This document shows, one piece after another, positions 2,406 through 59,698 of a stretch of 64,000 bases of DNA. The stretch is from Candidatus Kerfeldbacteria bacterium. Its GTDB lineage: Bacteria; Patescibacteriota; Patescibacteriia; SBBC01. Both the position numbers and the translations under genes were made by a program. Every line of letters begins with the position of its first letter. The first letter of the stretch is position 1. The DNA lies in NCBI GenBank assembly GCA_043799405.1, contig JAZDNT010000003.1, forward strand, positions 399,461-463,460. The letters run 5' to 3'. The notes below the pieces were generated by a model, which saw only the letters and a program-made list of their open reading frames with translations, was not told the DNA's origin and searched no databases.

Positions 2406-5400
2406 TTAGTTCTTCCGCTTTGTTAGAATGCGCGCCACAGACACACCGACAAGAAGGTAGAGCAGTGCCAGGCCGAACGTTGTGGCGGCCACGTATTGTC
2501 CGATGATGAACATTTTTTGCGGCCTGTACTCAATGATGATCTCGATGTCCTTCGGTTTCGAACCGGCCCGATAGAACCAGATATTCGAGAAACCGTTGAT
2601 CGCCTGGTGGCCGCCTATTTCCTTTAAGTTGTTGGTTTCCCACGCGCTGCCCGACGGCAAGACATCGTTTTGAACGGTCACGGCATTAGCTGCGACGGCG
2701 CCCGAATCTTGCTGCGTAGCATTGTTCGGTGGGATAACTTTTTCTGATGCTACGTATGCCTTCCAGTTAACATTATAATTCTCGGTGAACACTACGGGAA
2801 TGTTACCGCTGGCCGACTTCAGCACCACACGGTACTTCGTCGGGGATATCTTGCGGTATTCCACCCGCGAGACCTCGTAAGCGGCCGGACTCCGTTCTTT
2901 CACGAACGAAATCGTTTCCGGCAGATTGACCTGCCGCAGTTCAAAATTATCGAAATTATTTACCGATGCATGGCTGCTTCCGGGAACGGAGAAGTAGATC
3001 AGCGCCCTATTGGACTCACCCTGTTCGTACACGAATTCCTCGTGATGCCATTTGGTATTGCCGGTAACCGCGCTGATGCCGTGACAGTAATCCTCCTCGG
3101 TCAACTTGAGGCAGACCGTTGGTTGTTCGCCAGATACATGCTGCACGTCATAGGAAAATACGTACTTCTGATGGGGTTGAAGATTGCCCACCACCTTCGT
3201 CTGGCACACGCCTCGCTGCGTGTTGTGGAACTGAAGGATGTGTTTGCGCGTCGCCGAGCTATTGACCGAGTAGTCGGATACTTCCGACGTACAGTTGTAC
3301 GTGGGTTCTGGCCAACCACCAGTCTCGAACGACGAGTCGACGACTAAATTTTGGATATTGATGGCGTCGGATAACTGTAATGTATATTTCCCCTGACGGA
3401 GAAAGATCGTATCGGCATAGAGGGGATTGTTCTGCTGGAGTTGACGTTCGCTGGCATCTTGTTTCTCCAGCAACACCGTCTTCTTGTCCACATCCACGCT
3501 TTTCACGGTAAACACCACCCCGGGCGACGTGGTATCCCGACGCTTCTGATAGTATACGATCTGATACTTACCGTCCTCGGGTATGTTCAATTTGGTGATA
3601 ATTTGATGGTTGTTATGGAAAACATCCAGCGGTGAATCTTCGGAAAACTCAAGAGGGACGACCAATGTATTGGCGTTATATGTGCGTGCAGTGTTCACCA
3701 GGTACGCCGACCTATAGTTTTTGTTCAGAATGATGCCATCCAACACATTTCTTTCATTCCCGGCTATCCATGTTAATTGTTCGGGCACGTAAATGTGCGG
3801 CAGGTATTGTTCGTTTGACAATTGATAAATATCAAAATAATCGTTAGTTTGGGTCTTTGCCGTATCACGTAAATTCTTTAACCACGTATTGTAGTACTCC
3901 TGCGTCCAGTAACTCTCGTTCCTGAACGAGTTTTTATCATCGTACGATGGAATAGCTGAAGAGAAATCCCGTTTCAAATTGATGATGTCGCGAACATTGG
4001 ATAAACCGAGGTATCTTTCAGTGCAATTTTTTATCTGTTGGCAATAGCCAAATTGCACCACGTCAGTTAACAACGGCGATTGATCAGGGGATGAACCGAT
4101 GTCTTGTTTGGTCACCAGGTTAATTAAGGGGCTCACTCCGGAATAGAGTTTTTGGTCATCATTATATTTGACATAAAAACCCAATGGCAGCCAGAGTAGA
4201 CGATAATCACCGAAGTCGTTATTATATTTTTGTGCCAGAGAACTGTAAATATTTGATAATTGATATTGATGCAATCTTGAGCGATAAACATTCAGCACAT
4301 AAGGAGAGGCATTCAATAGTACGAACAGTATCAACGTACCAAAAAATGCCCGTTGATATTTTTTTTCTTTTCGCAGGTTGACATGCAGCGCGTAGACGGC
4401 TAACGCGAAAAGCCAGACGGCACTGAAGGTGATCAGATAGTAGAAATGGTTCAGATCGCGGAACATTCCGGAAAGCGGCAATTTGTAGAACCAGTCTCCG
4501 GTCCAGCTGAAGGGCTCGGCTCTGCCTTTTGCCAATACTATACCGGCTGCGAATATCACGAATCCGATAATGAAAAATCTATTTATAACCAGGCTTATTT
4601 TTTTTCGGTAAATACCGTAGGCGAGAAAGGGAAGGCCAAAGATCACAATCTGGCAAAATGCCCAGATATTATAAAACCATTTTAAATGTATGGTTTGAAG
4701 AAAATCCTTCACTGACCAGGAAACAAAAGGCAGATAGAAAAGATCCATGATGTTGTTCTGTTGGAAGCCCTGATATGAATTTTGCAATAGCCCCTGACTA
4801 AAAGTCGAAATTCCCCGGGGATGAGGCAGATATACCAGTAGCCACGAGGCAGAAAGCAAAAAATTGACGATAATGTAAACAACGAACAATTTAATGAGGG
4901 ATTTCCAGTGACGGAAATAGAAACAGGAAAAAACAAGGAGTAATACGGCATTGATAATAAAGAATTGAATTTGACTGGCAGCTAAGCTGAATACAACTGC
5001 CCCTGCAAGCGCCACGGCAAGGGTTGGCTTTTCAAGATACCGCATAAACAGATACACCAATAACGGCGTGAAACAAAAAGACAATATGTAACTGGTATAC
5101 CCATGATGGGTGACCAGGAATAATTGAGAAGAAGTCAGGTATAATAAACCAGCCATTACCGCTAACCAGGCAGGCAAAGCGATTTTTTTTATGAGCAGAT
5201 ATACGAAAAACGCCGACAGAGAAAACATGCCGACGAGAAATAGTATTGTGATTGCATTGCTGCTTACATGGCAGTTCAATAAAAGCCAGTAAAACAATAG
5301 TACATAATAATGATTTCCAGGAGTTATTTGATTATTTATCCAGGAGGAATTTAAAGGCGCTTTGACAAAATAATCTAAGGTTTGGGGGGGCATCCAGTCG

Positions 5401-5546: not shown

Positions 5547-8213
5547 TTACTCTTTCGTGGTTGTTGGTTTCGAATTTTTCCTTTGTTTCGCCCAGTAGTT
5601 ACAACCCAGAAAGCCGAAAAATCCAAGGAATGCGACCCCAGTAAGCATCATGCCGAGGTAGAACAGCCGTTGCGGGTAATATTCCACCACCAAATTGAAA
5701 TTATACGTTCCGTCCTGATTACGCGTACAGATGATCGATTTTCCGCAAATATCGCTCGTTGTAACGACCCAGCCGTTGGAATACCCGTTGGCCATAAAAT
5801 GATACTGCGCTGGAATTTCCAATGTGTTGTTTGAAGGGAAATACGTTTCGTAGAAATGGCCGGAAGGAATGTTGTCGTTCTGTATGGTGCCTTTAAAGTT
5901 CTTTGATATATAGCGCAGCCCATCATAGGCGAGCAATCCTTCGTCGATCAGCGTCTGCTTGTCGCTCGCGGTAATGCTGAATCTGTCTTGTGTATTGGGG
6001 AGTGACGGCGCGTGGGCGCTCACGATATTCTGCGGCCGTGCGTACAGTTTCCATTTGGCATCATAGGTTTCTGAAAACACGAGGGGGAAGTCTTTCTGCG
6101 CATGCGAAACGGTAATGACGTACTTGATAGGATTGACCTTATGAAAGGCAATGAGGCCCGGTGTCATTAGGGATGTTGGTTGCTGCGTCGCCGAGAGCGA
6201 GGGCGCATCCGTCGCCTTGTCCGTGCTGACGATAAGCGTGGTCTTGTGGAGCGCGATCGCTGCGGCGTTATCGTCTTTGGTGGTCTCAACGTACCTGTCA
6301 AAAAATCCCTTGTTCATCTCTTCGTTGCCGAGCACGTAGAGGCTCCTTGGCGAAAAATCCTCTTTACTTAAAAGATCGGGGTACCGATCGTACCCGATGT
6401 CAGCATAGACGACATCCTTCGGCACATAAAAAAGCGGGAGAAAATACGTTTCATCGATCGTATAGAGGTTGATGTAGTCCTTCTTGAACACCGGCATGAT
6501 GACGCCCCCGTCTTCGAGCTGGGAGATCTTGTCGTTGGCATCACCCAGAAACTTCTCGTCGACGTCCTTGTTGAACACCAGGTAGGAATCGTTCATAAGG
6601 CCCATCAGCCGCATGATCCATTCGGGGCGGGGATAGGTGGCGAACGTCTCTCCGTAGTTGAACCTTCCGATATTGAGGAACGAGGAGGGCGTCTGTACCG
6701 GTTTCCGGAACAGCTTCGTGGTGACGTCGTTGCCGATGAATTTCCATTTCGGGTACTGCGACCACCCCGGTGAATTGATGCAGCCGTAGGGAAGGTACTG
6801 CACCTTGAATTCATAGGGTGATTCGGTATTGACGATGTGCGACGCCTCAGAGTAATCGTCCGGGACCTTCACGAGATAGGAATAGGTAGCGGTCAGGTAG
6901 TTCTTGTCCTGATCGAACGCGAATGAAACGTTCTGCTGCAGCTTGCCGGTATAGAACGGGAGGGGAAATACCACCAGAACGGCGATCGCCACCCATTTGA
7001 TTGTCTGGTTGATCCTGCTTGATGAGATGAAATAGACGTAGATAAGCATCATGACAACAAAAGGAAGGAATACCATGAACTTGTCGTAACTCCTCGTCGC
7101 ATTGACGACGGGGAGGCTGAAGAACTTGACGCTCAATGACGCGAGCGGACCGTAGAATTTCGCTATTGCCACGATCAGTACCGCGAAAAACGACAGGAAG
7201 AACAGTCCGCGCCGCCGGTAGTGATCTGGTTTCCTCAACAATCCAGCCGCTACCAGCATGACCGGCAGGAAGGACAGTACAGTGAGCAGCATCCTCAACG
7301 CGGTATTCCGGATGACATAATCGGGAAATTTCCCGACGGTATTGATCGGCATGAATCGGATAATATCGAGGATATGCGTCGATTGCCACTTGATCCATGA
7401 CACGATGTCCCAACCGTCGAACGAATTCGCGAGTCCAGACGCCCCGCTGAACACGCTCGTGGAATACGGCAACAACCAGAAGATGTTCGTCATGAACAAA
7501 ACGCCATATACAATAATGCTGCGCTGTACGTACAGTGCGCCCTTCCTCAGATTGGAACAAATTATAAAGAGCGACATGAACAACAGCACCAGACAAAATG
7601 CCACCAGAAACCCGGGGTTGTTGAATCCCATCGAGCACAGAAACGATGCAACGACAAAACCAACGAGATGTTTTTTCGAACCGCTTCCTTCGATTATCCT
7701 GTACGCCAGAACCATCATGACCGGAATGAACAGGTAGAAGATCTGCTGGAACGTGTACCCGAACACGTGCATGAACAGATATAGGGTATATCCGTTCAGG
7801 CCGTAGACCAGGGAAAAGAACACCTGCCTGACCGCGGTTTTCTTATCTTCAGGAAACAGTATCCGCAGCGACCAAAAGAACGACGCCGACGCCATAAGGG
7901 TAAAGGCCGGTATACAGAGCGTCTGGAAGATGTTGTCAGGGAGCCTCAACAGCGACACAAGAACAATGATCAGCTGGTACGGCAATACCGCCTGGATCAT
8001 GGATTCCTGTCCCGACCCGTTCCCCAGCGAATTGCCCCAGGTGTAAAAATACGACCGGGCGGCGCCCTTCATATCGAAAAAAAAGGCGTCATCCGCTGCC
8101 GATACGATATAGCCCTTCGGGAACACGTTCGCGAAAAAGATCCACACGAAGATCGTGGCGATACCCACTACTACCGCGATCGAGAAAACTTTCCTGTTAC
8201 GAAAAAGATTCAT
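5547..8213 (-). CDS. Second giant GT-C-like polytopic membrane protein, same architecture as the neighbour
   Basis: 888-aa ORF with an N-terminal multi-TM domain, a soluble domain and a C-terminal TM segment (LFYLGMMLTGVAFLGFFGFLGC). It lies in tandem with 2406-5540. Confidence 0.6.
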   Translation of the reverse strand: MNLFRNRKVFSIAVVVGIATIFVWIFFANVFPKGYIVSAADDAFFFDMKGAARSYFYTWGNSLGNGSGQESMIQAVLPYQLIIVLVSLLRLPDNIFQTLCIPAFTLMASASFFWSLRILFPEDKKTAVRQVFFSLVYGLNGYTLYLFMHVFGYTFQQIFYLFIPVMMVLAYRIIEGSGSKKHLVGFVVASFLCSMGFNNPGFLVAFCLVLLFMSLFIICSNLRKGALYVQRSIIVYGVLFMTNIFWLLPYSTSVFSGASGLANSFDGWDIVSWIKWQSTHILDIIRFMPINTVGKFPDYVIRNTALRMLLTVLSFLPVMLVAAGLLRKPDHYRRRGLFFLSFFAVLIVAIAKFYGPLASLSVKFFSLPVVNATRSYDKFMVFLPFVVMMLIYVYFISSSRINQTIKWVAIAVLVVFPLPFYTGKLQQNVSFAFDQDKNYLTATYSYLVKVPDDYSEASHIVNTESPYEFKVQYLPYGCINSPGWSQYPKWKFIGNDVTTKLFRKPVQTPSSFLNIGRFNYGETFATYPRPEWIMRLMGLMNDSYLVFNKDVDEKFLGDANDKISQLEDGGVIMPVFKKDYINLYTIDETYFLPLFYVPKDVVYADIGYDRYPDLLSKEDFSPRSLYVLGNEEMNKGFFDRYVETTKDDNAAAIALHKTTLIVSTDKATDAPSLSATQQPTSLMTPGLIAFHKVNPIKYVITVSHAQKDFPLVFSETYDAKWKLYARPQNIVSAHAPSLPNTQDRFSITASDKQTLIDEGLLAYDGLRYISKNFKGTIQNDNIPSGHFYETYFPSNNTLEIPAQYHFMANGYSNGWVVTTSDICGKSIICTRNQDGTYNFNLVVEYYPQRLFYLGMMLTGVAFLGFFGFLGCNYWAKQRKNSKPTTTKE

Positions 8214-56550: not shown

Positions 56551-56585
56551 ATTGTTTAAAGTTTACACCACTCGCTAACCAATCC

Positions 56586-56612
56586 AAAACCGCCTCGTTG
56601 GCGGTTTTGTTG
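56586..56612 (-). terminator. Hairpin terminator at the end of the 16S transcription unit
   Basis: AACCGCC TCGTT GGCGGTT is flanked by A-runs and T-runs on both strands. It lies between the 16S trailer and the start of the next protein gene. Confidence 0.55.
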
Positions 56613-56839
56613 TTGACCCCGTTAGAGAGCCGCATGAAAAACCATACACGCTCAGCTACCAAAAGAGAGTCACCAAAGGGACTCTCTAACGGGGTTGACA
56701 ATCTGGAATGCGGTAAGGCATGTCCCGTACCTTCGCGTGAGCGATGGTGCGGGAACGCAAGCGATCTGCGTCATGACCCGTCACGGACATTAGCAGAGGA
56801 CGTTTCACGTCCATAAGTCCTTCTCATGGTACGTCGCAT

Positions 56840-56917
56840 CCAGCACCATTTCCACCTCTACAATCGCCGATAACGCCGGATTTTCGCCGACGATTTCAGA
56901 AATAGAAATGGTGCTGG
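56840..56917 (-). repeat. Trailer hairpin module A (copy 1 of the A/B pair)
   Basis: CCAGCACCATTTC...GAAATGGTGCTGG forms a 13/13-bp closing stem. It lies about 110 nt 3' of the mature 16S end. Confidence 0.8.
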
Positions 56918-57472
56918 AGGATTTCCCGAGGAGAAGAACACGACCTCTAGGTTCACGCAGAAAGTACACAATCTGCGCTGAACTCGAAACGACTAGCCCG
57001 AAGGCGAGTCGCTTCAGGTCTCCCTAGAAAGGAGGTGATCCATCGACAGCTTCCGCTACCGATGCCTTGTTACGACTTAGCCCCTATCATCGAGCCTACC
57101 TTGGTTCCCCGTACGGGGCATTTCAGGTATTCCCGACTCTCTTGGCTTGACGGGCGGTGTGTACAAAGCCCGAGAACGTATTCACCGCACCATGGCTGAT
57201 GCGCGGTTACTAGCGATTCCAGCTTCATGAGGGCGAGTTGCAGCCCTCAATCCGAACTGAGGGGTGGTTTGGTGGGATTGGCTCCGCCTTACGGCTTCGC
57301 AGCCCATTGTTACACCCCATTGTAGCACGTGTGTAGCCCAGGTCGTCAGAGGACCATGCTGACTTGACGTCATCCCTTCCTTCCTCACGCTTAAAGCGTG
57401 CAGTCTCGAGCGAATATTTTAACACTCGACAGGGGTTGCGCTCGTTAGGGGACTTAACCCAACAGCTCACGC

Positions 57473-57503
<31 letters not shown>

Positions 57504-57619
57504 TCAGCACCCTCGAAGGCTTCCCTAGTTTCCTAGGGCGTGCAGCTGAATTTCTAGACCTGGTAAGGTTCCTCGCTTAGCGTCGAATTGAACCACATGC
57601 TCCACCGCTTGTGCGGGCT

Positions 57620-57668
<49 letters not shown>

Positions 57669-57773
57669 GATGCTTATCGCGTTAGCTGACGATACTGCGA
57701 GGGTCGATACTCGCAACATCTAGCATCCATCGTTTACAGCGTGGACTACTGGGGTATCTACACGATTGTTACT

Positions 57774-57850
57774 TTCGGCGAGGAAACCTGAACGGTTTCC
57801 TCGTCCGATACCACTCCTTCCCTTTCATGGTGTCGATCCTTGCGCCTCGG
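57774..57850 (-). repeat. Module C (copy 2), at the 3' end of the 16S insertion
   Basis: TTCGGCGAGGAAACCTGAACGGTTTCCTCGTCCGATACCACTCCTTCCCT...CCTCGG matches about 46 of the first 50 positions of module D. It ends 13 nt inside the insertion. Confidence 0.8.
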
Positions 57851-58486
57851 CTAGGGTCCCGCCCTTCGGGCACCCTGATCCTCGGCGCTGCGGACTCGAC
57901 GTTCCATTTTGTCCCCTCCTCATGTGAGGAGGGGTGTCCGGTCGAATGACCGGACGGGGTGGTCGTGGTATGGACGCATCATTTCTGTGCGTCTCTGCAT
58001 GTCGCCATGCAGGTCAGACTATATCTTTCACCCGAAGGGTGACTCGGCGTATAGTCGTTGAGGGGTTTAGTGCTCATCCAGTCGTTAGAAAGGTTAGGGT
58101 GAGGGTCGATGGATTCTATAGTTTATACACGCCGCTAACCCGTAGGCGTGTCACGCCCCGCAGTTTCCAGGCACGCGTTTTCGTGTCCCGCCTTAACAGA
58201 TCACGAAGCTGTTTTTCGACCCCCACCCACTTCTAAAGACCAAAAGAGCACTAAACTTCCCTGCGGGTTGTCTGCACCGAATGATTTTTACTGTTGCCAG
58301 TACATTCGGATACTCAGAGTTTCCCGCAAATAGCCAAGTTTATTTATTCTCGCCTTGCGACGAGAGAGGACATGAGGCTTTTTCTCTCCCTTCGATCGTA
58401 CCCCTACGATCTTTCAATCAATCACATCGCGAACGTGAATTTACTTCACGTGAGCGATACAACTGAAGGGAAGGGGGAGCATCAAC

Positions 58487-58565
58487 CCAGCACCATTTCT
58501 GCCTCCGACAAAACTCACAAACGATTTCCCATCGTCGAAGTTTTCAGAAGTAGAAATGATGCTGG
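58487..58565 (-). repeat. Module B (copy 2), at the 5' end of the 16S insertion
   Basis: It has the same 13-nt start, CCAGCACCATTTC. The other arm, CGTCGAAGTTTTCAGAAGTAGAAATGATGCTGG, matches about 28/33 against module A. It begins 12 nt inside the insertion. Confidence 0.8.
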
Positions 58566-59291
58566 GAGAATTGCTTTATCCCATTCGCTCCCCACGCTTT
58601 CGTTCGTTGAGTGTCAGGATCGTTCCAGCACACTGCCTTCGCTATTGGTGTTCTTGCCGATATTAACGCATTTTACCGCTACACCGGCAATTCCGTGTGC
58701 CTCTCCCGTCCTCGAGTTCCGTCGTATCACCTGCGGCCTCACGGTTGAGCCGTGAGATTTAACAGGAGACGTGCGGAACCACCGTTGAACGCTTTACGCC
58801 CAATAAATCCGGATAACGCTCGGGGCCTTCGTATTACCGCTGCTGCTGGCACGAAGTTAGCAGCCCCTTATTCCTTCGGTACACTCAGTGTTGTTCCCGA
58901 AGAAAAGCAGTTTACACCCCGAAGGGCTTCTTCCTGCACGCGGCGTCGCTCCCTCAGACTTTCGTCCATTGGGGAAGATTCTCGACTGCAGCCTCCCGTA
59001 GGAGTCTGGGCAGTGTCGCAGTCCCAGTGAGGCGGGTCGTGCTCTCACACCCGCTATCCGTCATAGCCTTGGTAGGCCATTACCCTACCAACAAGCTGAT
59101 GGACCATAGGCCCCTCCCAAGGTGGCTTGCGCCTTTACTCCCGTTCCATATGGATCGGGACATCATCCGGAATTAGCCCGTCTTTCGACGAGTTATACCG
59201 AGCCTCGGGGTAGGTTACCAATGTGTTACGCACCCGTTTGCCACTCATACCTGTATTGCTACAGATCTTCGTTCGACTTGCATGCCTAAGA

Positions 59292-59331
<40 letters not shown>

Positions 59332-59631
59332 ATAAATGACGCGTATGGGTTTGGCTCCCCATACACCGCGATTCGATTGTTGGGATGGACGAATCGCTTA
59401 AGCACCTAGAATTTGACGTTTATCCCGTGTTTGACACGGGATCTTGTGACGGACCGTCGGAGAACAGAGAGGGGAGCCGGTACCGAAAGAGCAAAAGTTA
59501 AGTCGCTCTGGACCTTTGATCTCTACCCTCGGTTCTCCGGCGATCGCGTCGTTTGCTTGCTTGTCCAGCACCGAACAGAGTTCTGGTGCTGGGTTCCTTA
59601 CCGCATTTCAGTTGTCAACGTACCGGATCGA

Positions 59632-59698
59632 TTCGGCGAGGCAACCTACGGTTTCCTCGTCCGATGCCACTCCTTCCCTCGTCGGGGTCGCTCCTCGG
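59632..59698 (-). repeat. Leader module D (copy 1 of the C/D pair)
   Basis: TTCGGCGAGGCAACCTACGGTTTCCTCGTCCGATGCCACTCCTTCCCT...CCTCGG lies about 300 nt 5' of the mature 16S start. Confidence 0.8.

Follow-up and report, generated by a model that had tools for sequence, protein, structure and literature searches.

An ORF-less group I intron at site S788 of the 16S rRNA gene in a Candidatus Kerfeldbacteria bacterium

The stretch of DNA analysed here, 64,000 nucleotides (nt) of a Candidatus Kerfeldbacteria bacterium (contig JAZDNT010000003.1; hereafter the window, meaning the whole stretch), carries on its minus strand a 16S rRNA gene which is split by an 817-nt insertion in the loop of helix 24, the so-called 790 loop. 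The insertion is a group I intron lacking an open reading frame (ORF), and its boundaries, catalytic core, internal guide sequence (IGS), family-wide covariation and absence of an ORF are documented below. We regard it as highly probable that this intron is a member of a large family at the same site, S788, that it is vertically inherited in a Kerfeldbacteria-like lineage of the candidate phyla radiation (CPR), and that it is spliced out of the pre-16S rRNA by the standard two-step transesterification initiated by guanosine. A preceding account made from the letters of the window and a list of their ORFs (the sequence-only reading) had described the insertion and argued that the extra RNA must be spliced or cut out; its descriptive statements were all correct, and its interpretation is supported and completed here. 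Throughout, the intron of the window is called the window intron and numbered in the sense of the rRNA, and related loci are labelled L001-L147.

The Rfam bacterial small-subunit model RF00177 aligns end to end (model positions 1-1533) with 59337-57028 of the minus strand. In rRNA sense, exon 1 ends at 58578 with ...GGGGAGCGAAUGGGAU (at greater length ...AAAGCGUGGGGAGCGAAUGGGAU), the insert covers exactly 817 nt from 58577 to 57761, reading AAAGCAAUU...AACAAUCGUG (longer read AAAGCAAUUCUCCC...GUAACAAUCGUG), and exon 2 starts at 57760 with UAGAUACCCCAGUAGUCC (UAGAUACCCCAGUAGUCCACGC). The primer 806R fits the joined exons with 0 mismatches and is mismatched on the gene only at its two 3'-terminal bases, as had been claimed, which fixes the break at Escherichia coli 788/789, that is, between U788 and U789; the insertion site is S788 in standard intron nomenclature. 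The length and helix-24 location first proposed are confirmed, and the exon lengths of 760 and 733 nt agree as well.

57028..59337, minus strand: 16S rRNA gene including the intron (Rfam RF00177, 1343.7 bits).
57761..58577, minus strand: group I intron, 817 nt, site S788 (exon junctions; RF00028 match inside; homologous introns at the same site).
57751..57760, minus strand: first ten bases of exon 2, UAGAUACCCC (from the sequence).

Regarding the class of the element, a scan with intron models, which the sequence-only reading had proposed as a check, gives a definite answer. When the whole window is scanned with Rfam, RF00028 (Intron_gpI) matches 58425-57995 of the minus strand over its full length (model 1-253) with 62.7 bits, above the gathering score of 50, and E = 1.5e-13. 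The pattern noticed earlier, U as the last base of the exon and G as the last base of the intron as in group I introns, is seen at the junctions, and the 3' end ...AAUCGUG|UAGAUACC carries the terminal guanosine (omega-G). Upstream of P3 the Rfam alignment has low posterior probability, and P1 and P2 are not identified there. The elements of the core and of its 3' side are the following, in which P3 to P9 are given by their helix coordinates; J8/7 reads AAAGA.

57995..58425, minus strand: catalytic core P3-P9 (RF00028; covariation; near-invariant columns).
58333-58338/58043-58048, minus strand: P3, CUUGGC (intron 240-245) with GCCGAG (530-535).
58323-58328/58262-58267, minus strand: P4, UGCGGG with CCCGCA.
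58271-58319, minus strand: P5 with a 40-nt extension.
58259-58261/58063-58065, minus strand: P6, GGG with CCC, enclosing a GC-rich, ORF-less extension of about 190 nt.
58050-58056/58017-58023, minus strand: P7, GACUAUA with UAUAGUC.
58029-58041, minus strand: P8, CACCC-UUC-GGGUG.
57995-58012, minus strand: P9, CUGCAUG-GCGA-CAUGCAG, with a GCGA loop.
57973..57993, minus strand: P9.1-like hairpin GACGCA-CAGAAAUGA-UGCGUC (6/6 pairs changed on both sides; loop conserved family-wide).
57774..57972, minus strand: P9 peripheral extension, about 200 nt of GC-rich hairpins (fold; its last module, 57774-57822, made up of a G-rich strand, a hairpin and CGAA, has a paralog in the leader).
57761..57773, minus strand: 3' tail AGUAACAAUCGUG, ending in omega-G at 57761 (G(U/C)AACA...GUG is kept at the 3' end of all family members).

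The J8/7-P7-P9 segment of the window intron (AAGAUAUAGUCUGACCU) presumably resembles the IC1 cores of the Tetrahymena type. The loop CAGAAAUG(A) of the P9.1-like hairpin (57979-57987, intron 591-599) is nearly invariant throughout the family while its stem covaries freely, which suggests a tertiary contact or a protein-binding site.

Relatives were collected by two scans. The first one, over one genome per species and with the pattern P7...J8/7-P7', gave 58 loci (L001-L058), mostly in Patescibacteria, and two of them, L045 and L029, carry an intron at the same 16S site. The second one, over metagenomes and with the 3' junction GUG|UAGAUACCCNNGUAGUCC, gave 89 loci, about 70 of which have a complete insertion after ...GGAU; as the recovered homologs were selected by a pattern requiring GUG, the terminal G of the family holds by construction. 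L045, a Candidatus Kerfeldbacteria metagenome-assembled genome (MAG; JACPSJ010000001), has exons 86-90% identical to those of the window; its insert is 674 nt long, interrupts the gene at exactly the same bond and has the same ends, AAACGAAUU...AACAAUCGUG. L029, a Blackburnbacteria MAG, has a 350-nt intron at S788 which scores 81 bits in Rfam. L115, an independent metagenome contig, has exons 96.2% and 98.6% identical, a syntenic leader and trailer with 76-84% identity, and the same intron site and ends. The comparison with related CPR 16S genes that had been proposed earlier finds homologous insertions at the identical site in L045 and L115, and the placement in CPR fits the closest named 16S, that of a Candidatus Kerfeldbacteria MAG of the Patescibacteria group.

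The structure is further tested by covariation in two sets of relatives. For 59 non-redundant cores, whose variable interiors were removed, RNAalifold draws P1, P2 and P4-P9.1; P1, P3 and P7 were set by hand where they had not been drawn (P3 and P7 cross). Over these cores the 59 pairs of the structure have 95.2% canonical cells vs 34-42% with slid partners, and compensatory double changes are found in 37 pairs vs 10-16. For 23 full-length introns, we used an unedited MAFFT alignment and a structure derived from the window intron (56 pairs, with P7 as a pseudoknot): 88.2% of cells are paired, vs 72.2% in shuffled alignments (0/500 reach it) and 38-42% with slid partners, the covariation score is 0.505 vs 0.206 (again 0/500), and 246 cells are changed on both sides vs 83 expected. 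In P3, P4, P5, P6, P7 and P9 the paired fraction is 90-100% and both sides show changes; most of the covariation signal comes from P2, P3, P4, P5, P9 and P9.1. A further pairing drawn by RNAalifold, of P3/J3-4 with the 3' splice site, consists of invariant columns only and competes with P3, and was treated as an artefact.

Two observations then bear on the state of this particular copy. Of the 83 columns in which the other 58 sequences reach a conservation of at least 95%, the window intron keeps 82, the lone departure being an A to U in J3/4, and compared with L115 it has compensatory changes in P2, P3, P4, P9.1 and an L1 hairpin despite near-identical exons. Because such changes have accumulated between two introns whose exons are 96-99% identical, the comparison indicates that the structure is under selection in the lineage of the window. 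The ribozyme is under purifying selection there and no decaying relic.

The sequence-only reading had found no convincing P1 or IGS. It is right in that none is visible near the 5' splice site; the IGS is nevertheless found by homology, as GUCCU at intron 207-211. Most introns of the family start GAGGGAUCUU-GUCCU-CUUC..., a textbook arrangement of P1 (exon AGGAU with GUCCU), P10 (AUCU with exon AGAU) and then a P2 capped by a GNRA loop. In about 50 homologous introns this unit, GUCCUCU plus the GNRA hairpin, comes directly after the 5' splice site, whereas the GUCCUCUCU-plus-GNRA-hairpin unit lies at intron 207-230 in the window intron, 165-187 in L045 and 150-173 in L115, and GUCCU at 207-211 is hence identified as the IGS. 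Inspection by eye easily misses it, since a folded insertion of 206 nt in the loop of P1 separates it from the splice site.

58578..58582, minus strand: GGGAU (E. coli 784-788), the five bases that end exon 1 and form the 5' strand of P1 (from the sequence; pairs with the IGS GUCCU).
58367..58371, minus strand: IGS GUCCU (intron 207-211), the 3' strand of P1, in which G207 pairs with U-1 (homology to the members with a short L1; RNAalifold recovers P1 independently).
58348..58365, minus strand: P2 hairpin UCUCGUC-GCAA-GGCGAGA with a GNRA loop (7/7 pairs changed on both sides across 23 introns).
58372..58577, minus strand: expanded P1 loop, the L1 domain (intron 1-206; fold energy; shared with L115, including compensatory hairpin changes).
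58486..58566, minus strand: 81-nt hairpin in L1 (intron 12-92), found in this genome only (paralog in the 16S trailer; short unrelated hairpins in L115).
58394..58411, minus strand: L1 hairpin GAUCGUA-GGGG-UACGAUC (intron 167-184), proposed as a hairpin-presented, P10-like guide by its inferred pairing.

In the window intron P1 consists of U-1.G207, A-U, G-C, G-C and G.U, and A1-U206 can extend it. The four pairs nearest to the splice site (U.G, A-U, G-C, G-C) are invariant in 59 members, while the fifth is AU in 45, GU in 4, GC in 1, AC in 8 and AA in 1; the splice-site U.G is present in 59/59 members and in 22/23 rows of the MAFFT alignment. Other places for the IGS were rejected: neither the vicinity of the intron's 5' end nor the stretch that follows the 81-nt hairpin offers a U.G-compatible pairing, and GCUCCCC (intron 98-104), which pairs with exon GGGGAGC, does not reach the splice-site U. 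The L1 domain itself folds with -89.7 kcal/mol (z = -8.3 vs 200 shuffles) into a stem 3-9/93-100 that closes the 81-nt hairpin and a three-way junction at 103-192. About 20 unpaired nt remain between the splice site and the IGS once these subdomains are closed, so that in this model they would bring the two together.

The length of L1 divides the family. Short-L1 members (7-13 nt, n=51) have exons reading ACAGGAU and generally bear an ORF; long-L1 members (41-255 nt, n=17) have CPR-like exons (AAAGGAU, AUGGGAU, AAGGGAU) and are mostly ORF-less, L078 and L124 being those that do carry an ORF of the LAGLIDADG_2 type. The 206-nt L1 of the window intron is typical of the long-L1 group.

The expanded L1 offers a candidate for the nearly lost contact with the 3' exon. 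GGGGUA at 58399-58404 is complementary to positions +5..+10 of the 3' exon (UACCCC), and a GGGUA hairpin occurs in L1 of 16 of the 17 L1-expanded introns with covarying stems (GAUCG/CGAUC, CCGG/CCGG, CCACC/GGUGG, CGUG/CACG and others). It lies 8-25 nt upstream of the IGS, or near the 5' end in L078 and L124, whose L1 is shorter. The loop motif is (A)GGG(G)UA(U), and GGGUA occurs once per intron and always in L1; the motif is always the longest complement between L1 and the 3' exon, at 5-9 nt (in L065, AAGGGUAUC vs GAUACCCUU). Across these 16 introns the GGG(G)UA complement covers +4..+10 of the 3' exon with an extent that varies on both sides of the motif; opposite exon +10 there is G in 3/5 exons with C, and A in 7/11 exons with U. 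UACCC, on the other hand, is virtually absent from the introns themselves. The exception is L029, with the exon UAGAGACCCC and without the GGGUA hairpin. In view of the recurrence of the motif in L1, its being the longest complement, the avoidance of UACCC and the varying extent with the tracking of +10, the GGGGUA loop is probably a guide for the 3' exon presented by a hairpin, that is, a relocated P10. Such a guide might also stop the CCC of the exon from re-pairing with the exon GGG of helix 24.

The 790 loop is a bridge between the subunits and belongs to the region of initiation factor 3 (IF3) and the P site, and because of these established roles the insert must be removed. The standard reaction would proceed as follows. 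P1 would form across the folded L1 between exon GGGAU and the guide GUCCU, with the U.G wobble at the cleavage site, the guide being distant from the splice site in sequence but near to it in the fold; an external guanosine in the P7 pocket of the P3-P9 core would attack U-1|A1; omega-G (57761) would then take over the pocket, while what is left of P10, the GGGG loop or both hold the 3' exon; and ligation of the exons at GGGAU-UAGAUACCC would restore the 790 loop GGAUUAGAUACCC. In agreement with this, insertions in CPR rRNA genes are reported to be absent from the transcripts (PMC11270868, citing Brown et al. 2015).

Several points weigh against this picture. P1 has only 5-6 bp with two wobble pairs, and the strand 5' of the IGS (CUCAU) makes 2 bp with the 3' exon vs 4 bp in the short-L1 members. 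As to the substitute for P10, the 6-mer GGGGUA/UACCCC is not significant in the window intron alone (279/1000 shuffles are as good), and part of the motif lies in the hairpin stem of the minimum-energy fold. P8, although present in the window intron, is not in register across the family with MAFFT (44% paired), and likewise P6a cannot be aligned in register family-wide. About 590 nt of peripheral RNA (the L1, P6 and P9 extensions) could slow the folding or impose a dependence on protein. Moreover, both the splicing in this organism and its autocatalysis are what we infer from sequence.

The last of the structural points leads to a variant of the above mechanism, namely that splicing takes place only with a protein cofactor, either a host RNA chaperone or a maturase encoded elsewhere. 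The large peripheral insertions, the short P1 and the weak P10 would fit it, as would the loss from the window intron of the endonuclease/maturase-type ORF of its relatives, and among the group I introns of nuclear rDNA, many of those that have repeat insertions in P1 or P9 fail to self-splice in vitro (PMC8395846). Nothing in the window points to a cofactor, however, and the CPR tRNA group I introns that were tested do self-splice in vitro (PMC13011429); we take this dependence as possible but not favoured. A more radical departure is an intervening sequence (IVS) derived from a group I intron and no longer spliced, which host endonucleases of the RNase III type would cut out at helices of its long peripheral arms, leaving a 16S rRNA whose two pieces stay together in the ribosome, as with some bacterial 23S IVSs. 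Besides the short P1 and weak P10, it could call on the copies of the intron's 3' module in the leader and of its 5' hairpin in the trailer, which are the regions forming the processing stem of the pre-16S, and on the ability of the C-rich strand of L1 to pair with the G-rich strand of the 3' extension (-29.3 kcal/mol) or with the leader copy (-34.1); RNase III-type IVSs are considered probable in CPR rRNA genes too (PMC11270868). Like such IVSs, the insert adds RNA to an rRNA gene and has long arms that can pair with themselves; its arms are also related to the leader and trailer.

Unlike IVSs, which show a long end duplex, no ribozyme core and fragmented rRNA, the window intron has a complete and constrained group I core, an IGS and omega-G. 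The catalytic core is intact at 82/83 near-invariant positions, and its helices, IGS and omega-G are kept by compensatory change between very close relatives, which is unexpected if catalysis were dispensable. The duplex of L1 with the 3' extension is about 2 sd beyond shuffles (mean -20.1, sd 4.0, with one shuffle at -36.1), and covariation among the window intron, L115 and L145 favours the local L1 fold; the same marginal energy and covariation led us to set this long helix aside as a splice-site clamp or RNase III substrate, and to leave it as a minor possibility. A break in the 790 loop, at the subunit interface and the IF3 site, would also be harder to tolerate than one at the known sites of fragmentation. 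An unspliced IVS is accordingly judged quite improbable. As for an assembly chimera or mis-join that placed foreign DNA in the 16S gene, metagenomic rRNA regions are prone to misassembly, but we found no specific evidence for it here, the break falls at a single phosphodiester bond with perfect continuity of the exons, and independent assemblies, among them that of a close relative whose leader and trailer are syntenic, have homologous introns with the same ends at exactly this site, so that this origin is scarcely conceivable.

Returning to the spliced group I intron, its kinship tells something of its history. Members of about 860-940 nt have a sense ORF of about 200-260 aa in P6, which is a LAGLIDADG_2 ORF (PF03161; E = 9e-33 and 2.5e-38 in two examples), and three contigs have 386-nt members which are deletion derivatives keeping scraps of this ORF. 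With the metagenomic LAGLIDADG_2 introns at S788 (L059-L147) the window intron shares the site, the IGS GUCCU, the P2-P9.1 core, the 3' tail and the CAGAAAUG loop; it differs from them by its 206-nt L1 (7-13 nt there), by having almost no adjacent P10 (4 bp there, AUCU/AGAU) and by having no ORF (about 200 aa there). By these shared features they are clearly one family. About 50 ORF-bearing S788 introns come from 16S genes of soil and other metagenomes with the general bacterial exon GGGGAGCAAACAGGAU|UAGAUACCCUGGUAGUCC (e.g. L060 3822-4698 minus, L116, L136).

The longest sense ORFs within the insert have 32-36 aa, in agreement with the earlier claim that no sense-strand ORF reaches 60 aa. For two ORFs on the antisense strand, with 100 and 153 aa, Pfam gives no match even with the cutoff relaxed to E<=1, and a LAGLIDADG profile built from 47 ORFs of the family finds nothing in the window intron in six frames with hmmsearch. 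A degraded homing endonuclease gene was considered and rejected: tblastn matches with the ORFs of the family reflect similarity of the RNA core only, and the Pfam and profile searches were negative. Because the endonuclease gene that the relatives carry in P6 is absent, the window intron is no longer mobile by homing.

Both ends of the intron have similar copies outside the mature 16S rRNA.

59632..59679, minus strand: leader copy of the intron 3' module, lying about 300 nt before the point where the mature 16S begins (sequence paralogy).
56839..56918, minus strand: trailer copy of the 81-nt hairpin of L1, about 110-190 nt downstream of the 16S 3' end (sequence paralogy).

The 3' module, intron 756-804 (57822-57774), consists of GGGAAGGAGUGGUAUCG, the hairpin GACGAGGAAACC...GGUUUCCUCGCC and GAA. 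It is 92% identical to the leader copy over 50 nt (E = 8e-15), and a 29-mer pattern, whose single degenerate position Y is U in the intron copy and C in that of the leader, is found in both, where none is expected by chance. The leader module lies directly 5' of the leader strand (about 59620-59596) of a leader-trailer stem of about 24 bp, the other strand of which is at about 56718-56694. L115 has the same pair (intron 479-539; 4791-4851), with 84% over 62 nt and E = 2e-12. Within each genome the two copies share their own states in the core of the module, GGGAAGGAGUGG...GACGAGGAAACC in the window vs GGGAAAGGGAGG...GAAGGGAAAACC in L115; this pattern of concerted evolution indicates gene conversion or a co-adaptation to a common partner. 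Since L045 has the module in its intron and not in its leader, the leader copy is probably derived from the intron.

The other repeat, a hairpin of about 80 nt, reads CCAGCAYCAUUUCU...GAAAUGGUGCUGG. Both of its copies are specific to this genome, L115 having short unrelated hairpins at the L1 and the trailer position, and a similarity of L1 and trailer by ancestry is ruled out, as there is none in L115 or L045. The hairpin may be a small mobile or recombining element. A 15-nt match between L1 and trailer, AUCGCUCACG(U/C)GAAG, could be chance, and the 3' strands of the L1 and trailer hairpins hold strings similar to the CAGAAAUG loop, namely GCAGAAAUGGUG and GGUGGAAAUGGUG.

A search for an RNA partner that would explain these paralogies gave none that is convincing. 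Read prosaically, they stem from recombination between non-coding stretches that tolerate structure, of which a compact genome has few. As each half of the 16S rRNA is flanked by a leader-like element upstream and a trailer-like one downstream, one may also imagine that the ends of the intron are wired into the processing of the pre-16S, with the copies binding a common factor or the complementary strands of each other, and the removal of the intron coupled to leader-trailer processing, or else an RNase route to a two-piece 16S. We think this unlikely. If true, it would, together with the L1 hairpin guide, be an embedding of a group I intron in rRNA maturation that the accessible literature does not describe; the paralogs matter only if they are functional.

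In terms of known systems, the window intron is a further case of a well-documented class of elements, the group I introns of CPR 16S genes, some of which are ORF-less. Group I introns have been known in CPR 16S and 23S genes since 2015 (Brown et al. 2015, as cited in the 2024 catalogue). According to that catalogue (Tsurumaki et al. 2024, PMC11270868), insertions of at least 100 bp occur in 48% of CPR 16S genes, 134 of 378 CPR 16S insertions are group I by Rfam, and 49 of the 134 have no annotated ORF. The window intron agrees with these in the host group, the gene, the Rfam class of the element and the ORF-less category. The catalogue classes the insertions by Rfam match and ORF content, without secondary structures of the introns, and names its sites 16IS1-10 without numeric positions. 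Nuclear S788 introns of fungi and myxomycetes (e.g. Mucilago crustacea, PMC8395846), which are reported as subgroup IC1, occupy the identical site in E. coli numbering, and peripheral insertions, some of them in P1, are known for nuclear rDNA introns too (PMC8395846); the host here is bacterial. In giant sulfur bacteria, which are different hosts, self-splicing group I introns likewise interrupt 16S genes and hinder detection by polymerase chain reaction (Salman et al. 2012, as cited in PMC11270868 and in PMC5421297). The guide displaced behind an L1 of 200 nt, the candidate P10 presented by a loop, and the leader and trailer paralogs were not found described in the accessible CPR and rDNA intron literature, and these three details concern peripheral architecture, not a new mechanism.

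What more can be drawn from the intron is of two kinds. As a case history, it shows a homing intron that has become fixed and vertically inherited within a single-copy gene essential to a reduced genome, with the endonuclease lost, the core kept and the periphery grown, and the set of about 70 introns at one site, with and without endonuclease and with short and long P1 loops, is suited to asking how far a guide can be displaced and whether a hairpin loop can provide P10. In practical terms, the 515F site reads GTGCCAGCAGCAGCGGTAA, with the one mismatch that had been claimed (primer position 12, C to A), and the 515F/806R pair cannot amplify the gene: 806R does not match at its 3' end, and a product, if there were one, would exceed the expected length by 817 bp, which makes the lineage invisible to standard V4 surveys. 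A bias of V4 primers is already recognised for CPR bacteria.

Some further observations concern other introns of the collection. Most P7...J8/7 matches in the 58 species representatives lie outside 16S, and several contigs (L044, L043, L028) have 2-3 cores, which illustrates a dense population of CPR rRNA operons by group I introns. The 16S gene of L045 (2411-5475) has three insertions: one of about 150 nt near 70-92, the intron at S788, and one of about 770 nt close to the 3' end (about 1450 in the spliced numbering of the window), the last being group I by Rfam with 59.4 bits; unlike it, the 16S gene of the window has the S788 intron only. In L045 (intron about 200-285) and L145 (about 130-215), two extra hairpins lie inside the 5' strand of P3 (CUUG[...]GC), turning P3 into a multi-way junction. 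In L024 (Saccharibacteria), an 805-nt insertion near 16S 1361 (5765-6570) matches group II D1-D4 (RF01998, 44.5 bits), and the same contig has two group I introns in its 23S gene.

As for the surroundings of the gene in the window, helix 17 is shortened (about 58860-58900), the 16S lacking 17 nt with respect to the Rfam consensus (model about 453-469), and a promoter-like TTGACA-17-TATGCT lies at 60101-60073 of the minus strand. No 23S or 5S gene is found downstream of the 16S anywhere in the window (1-57027), and the trailer ends at 56575-56612 with a hairpin and, after it, a few U residues in a row (AAAACCGCC-AACGA-GGCGGUUUUGG), an arrangement also kept in L115; together they suggest that the 16S is transcribed alone and that the rRNA genes are unlinked.

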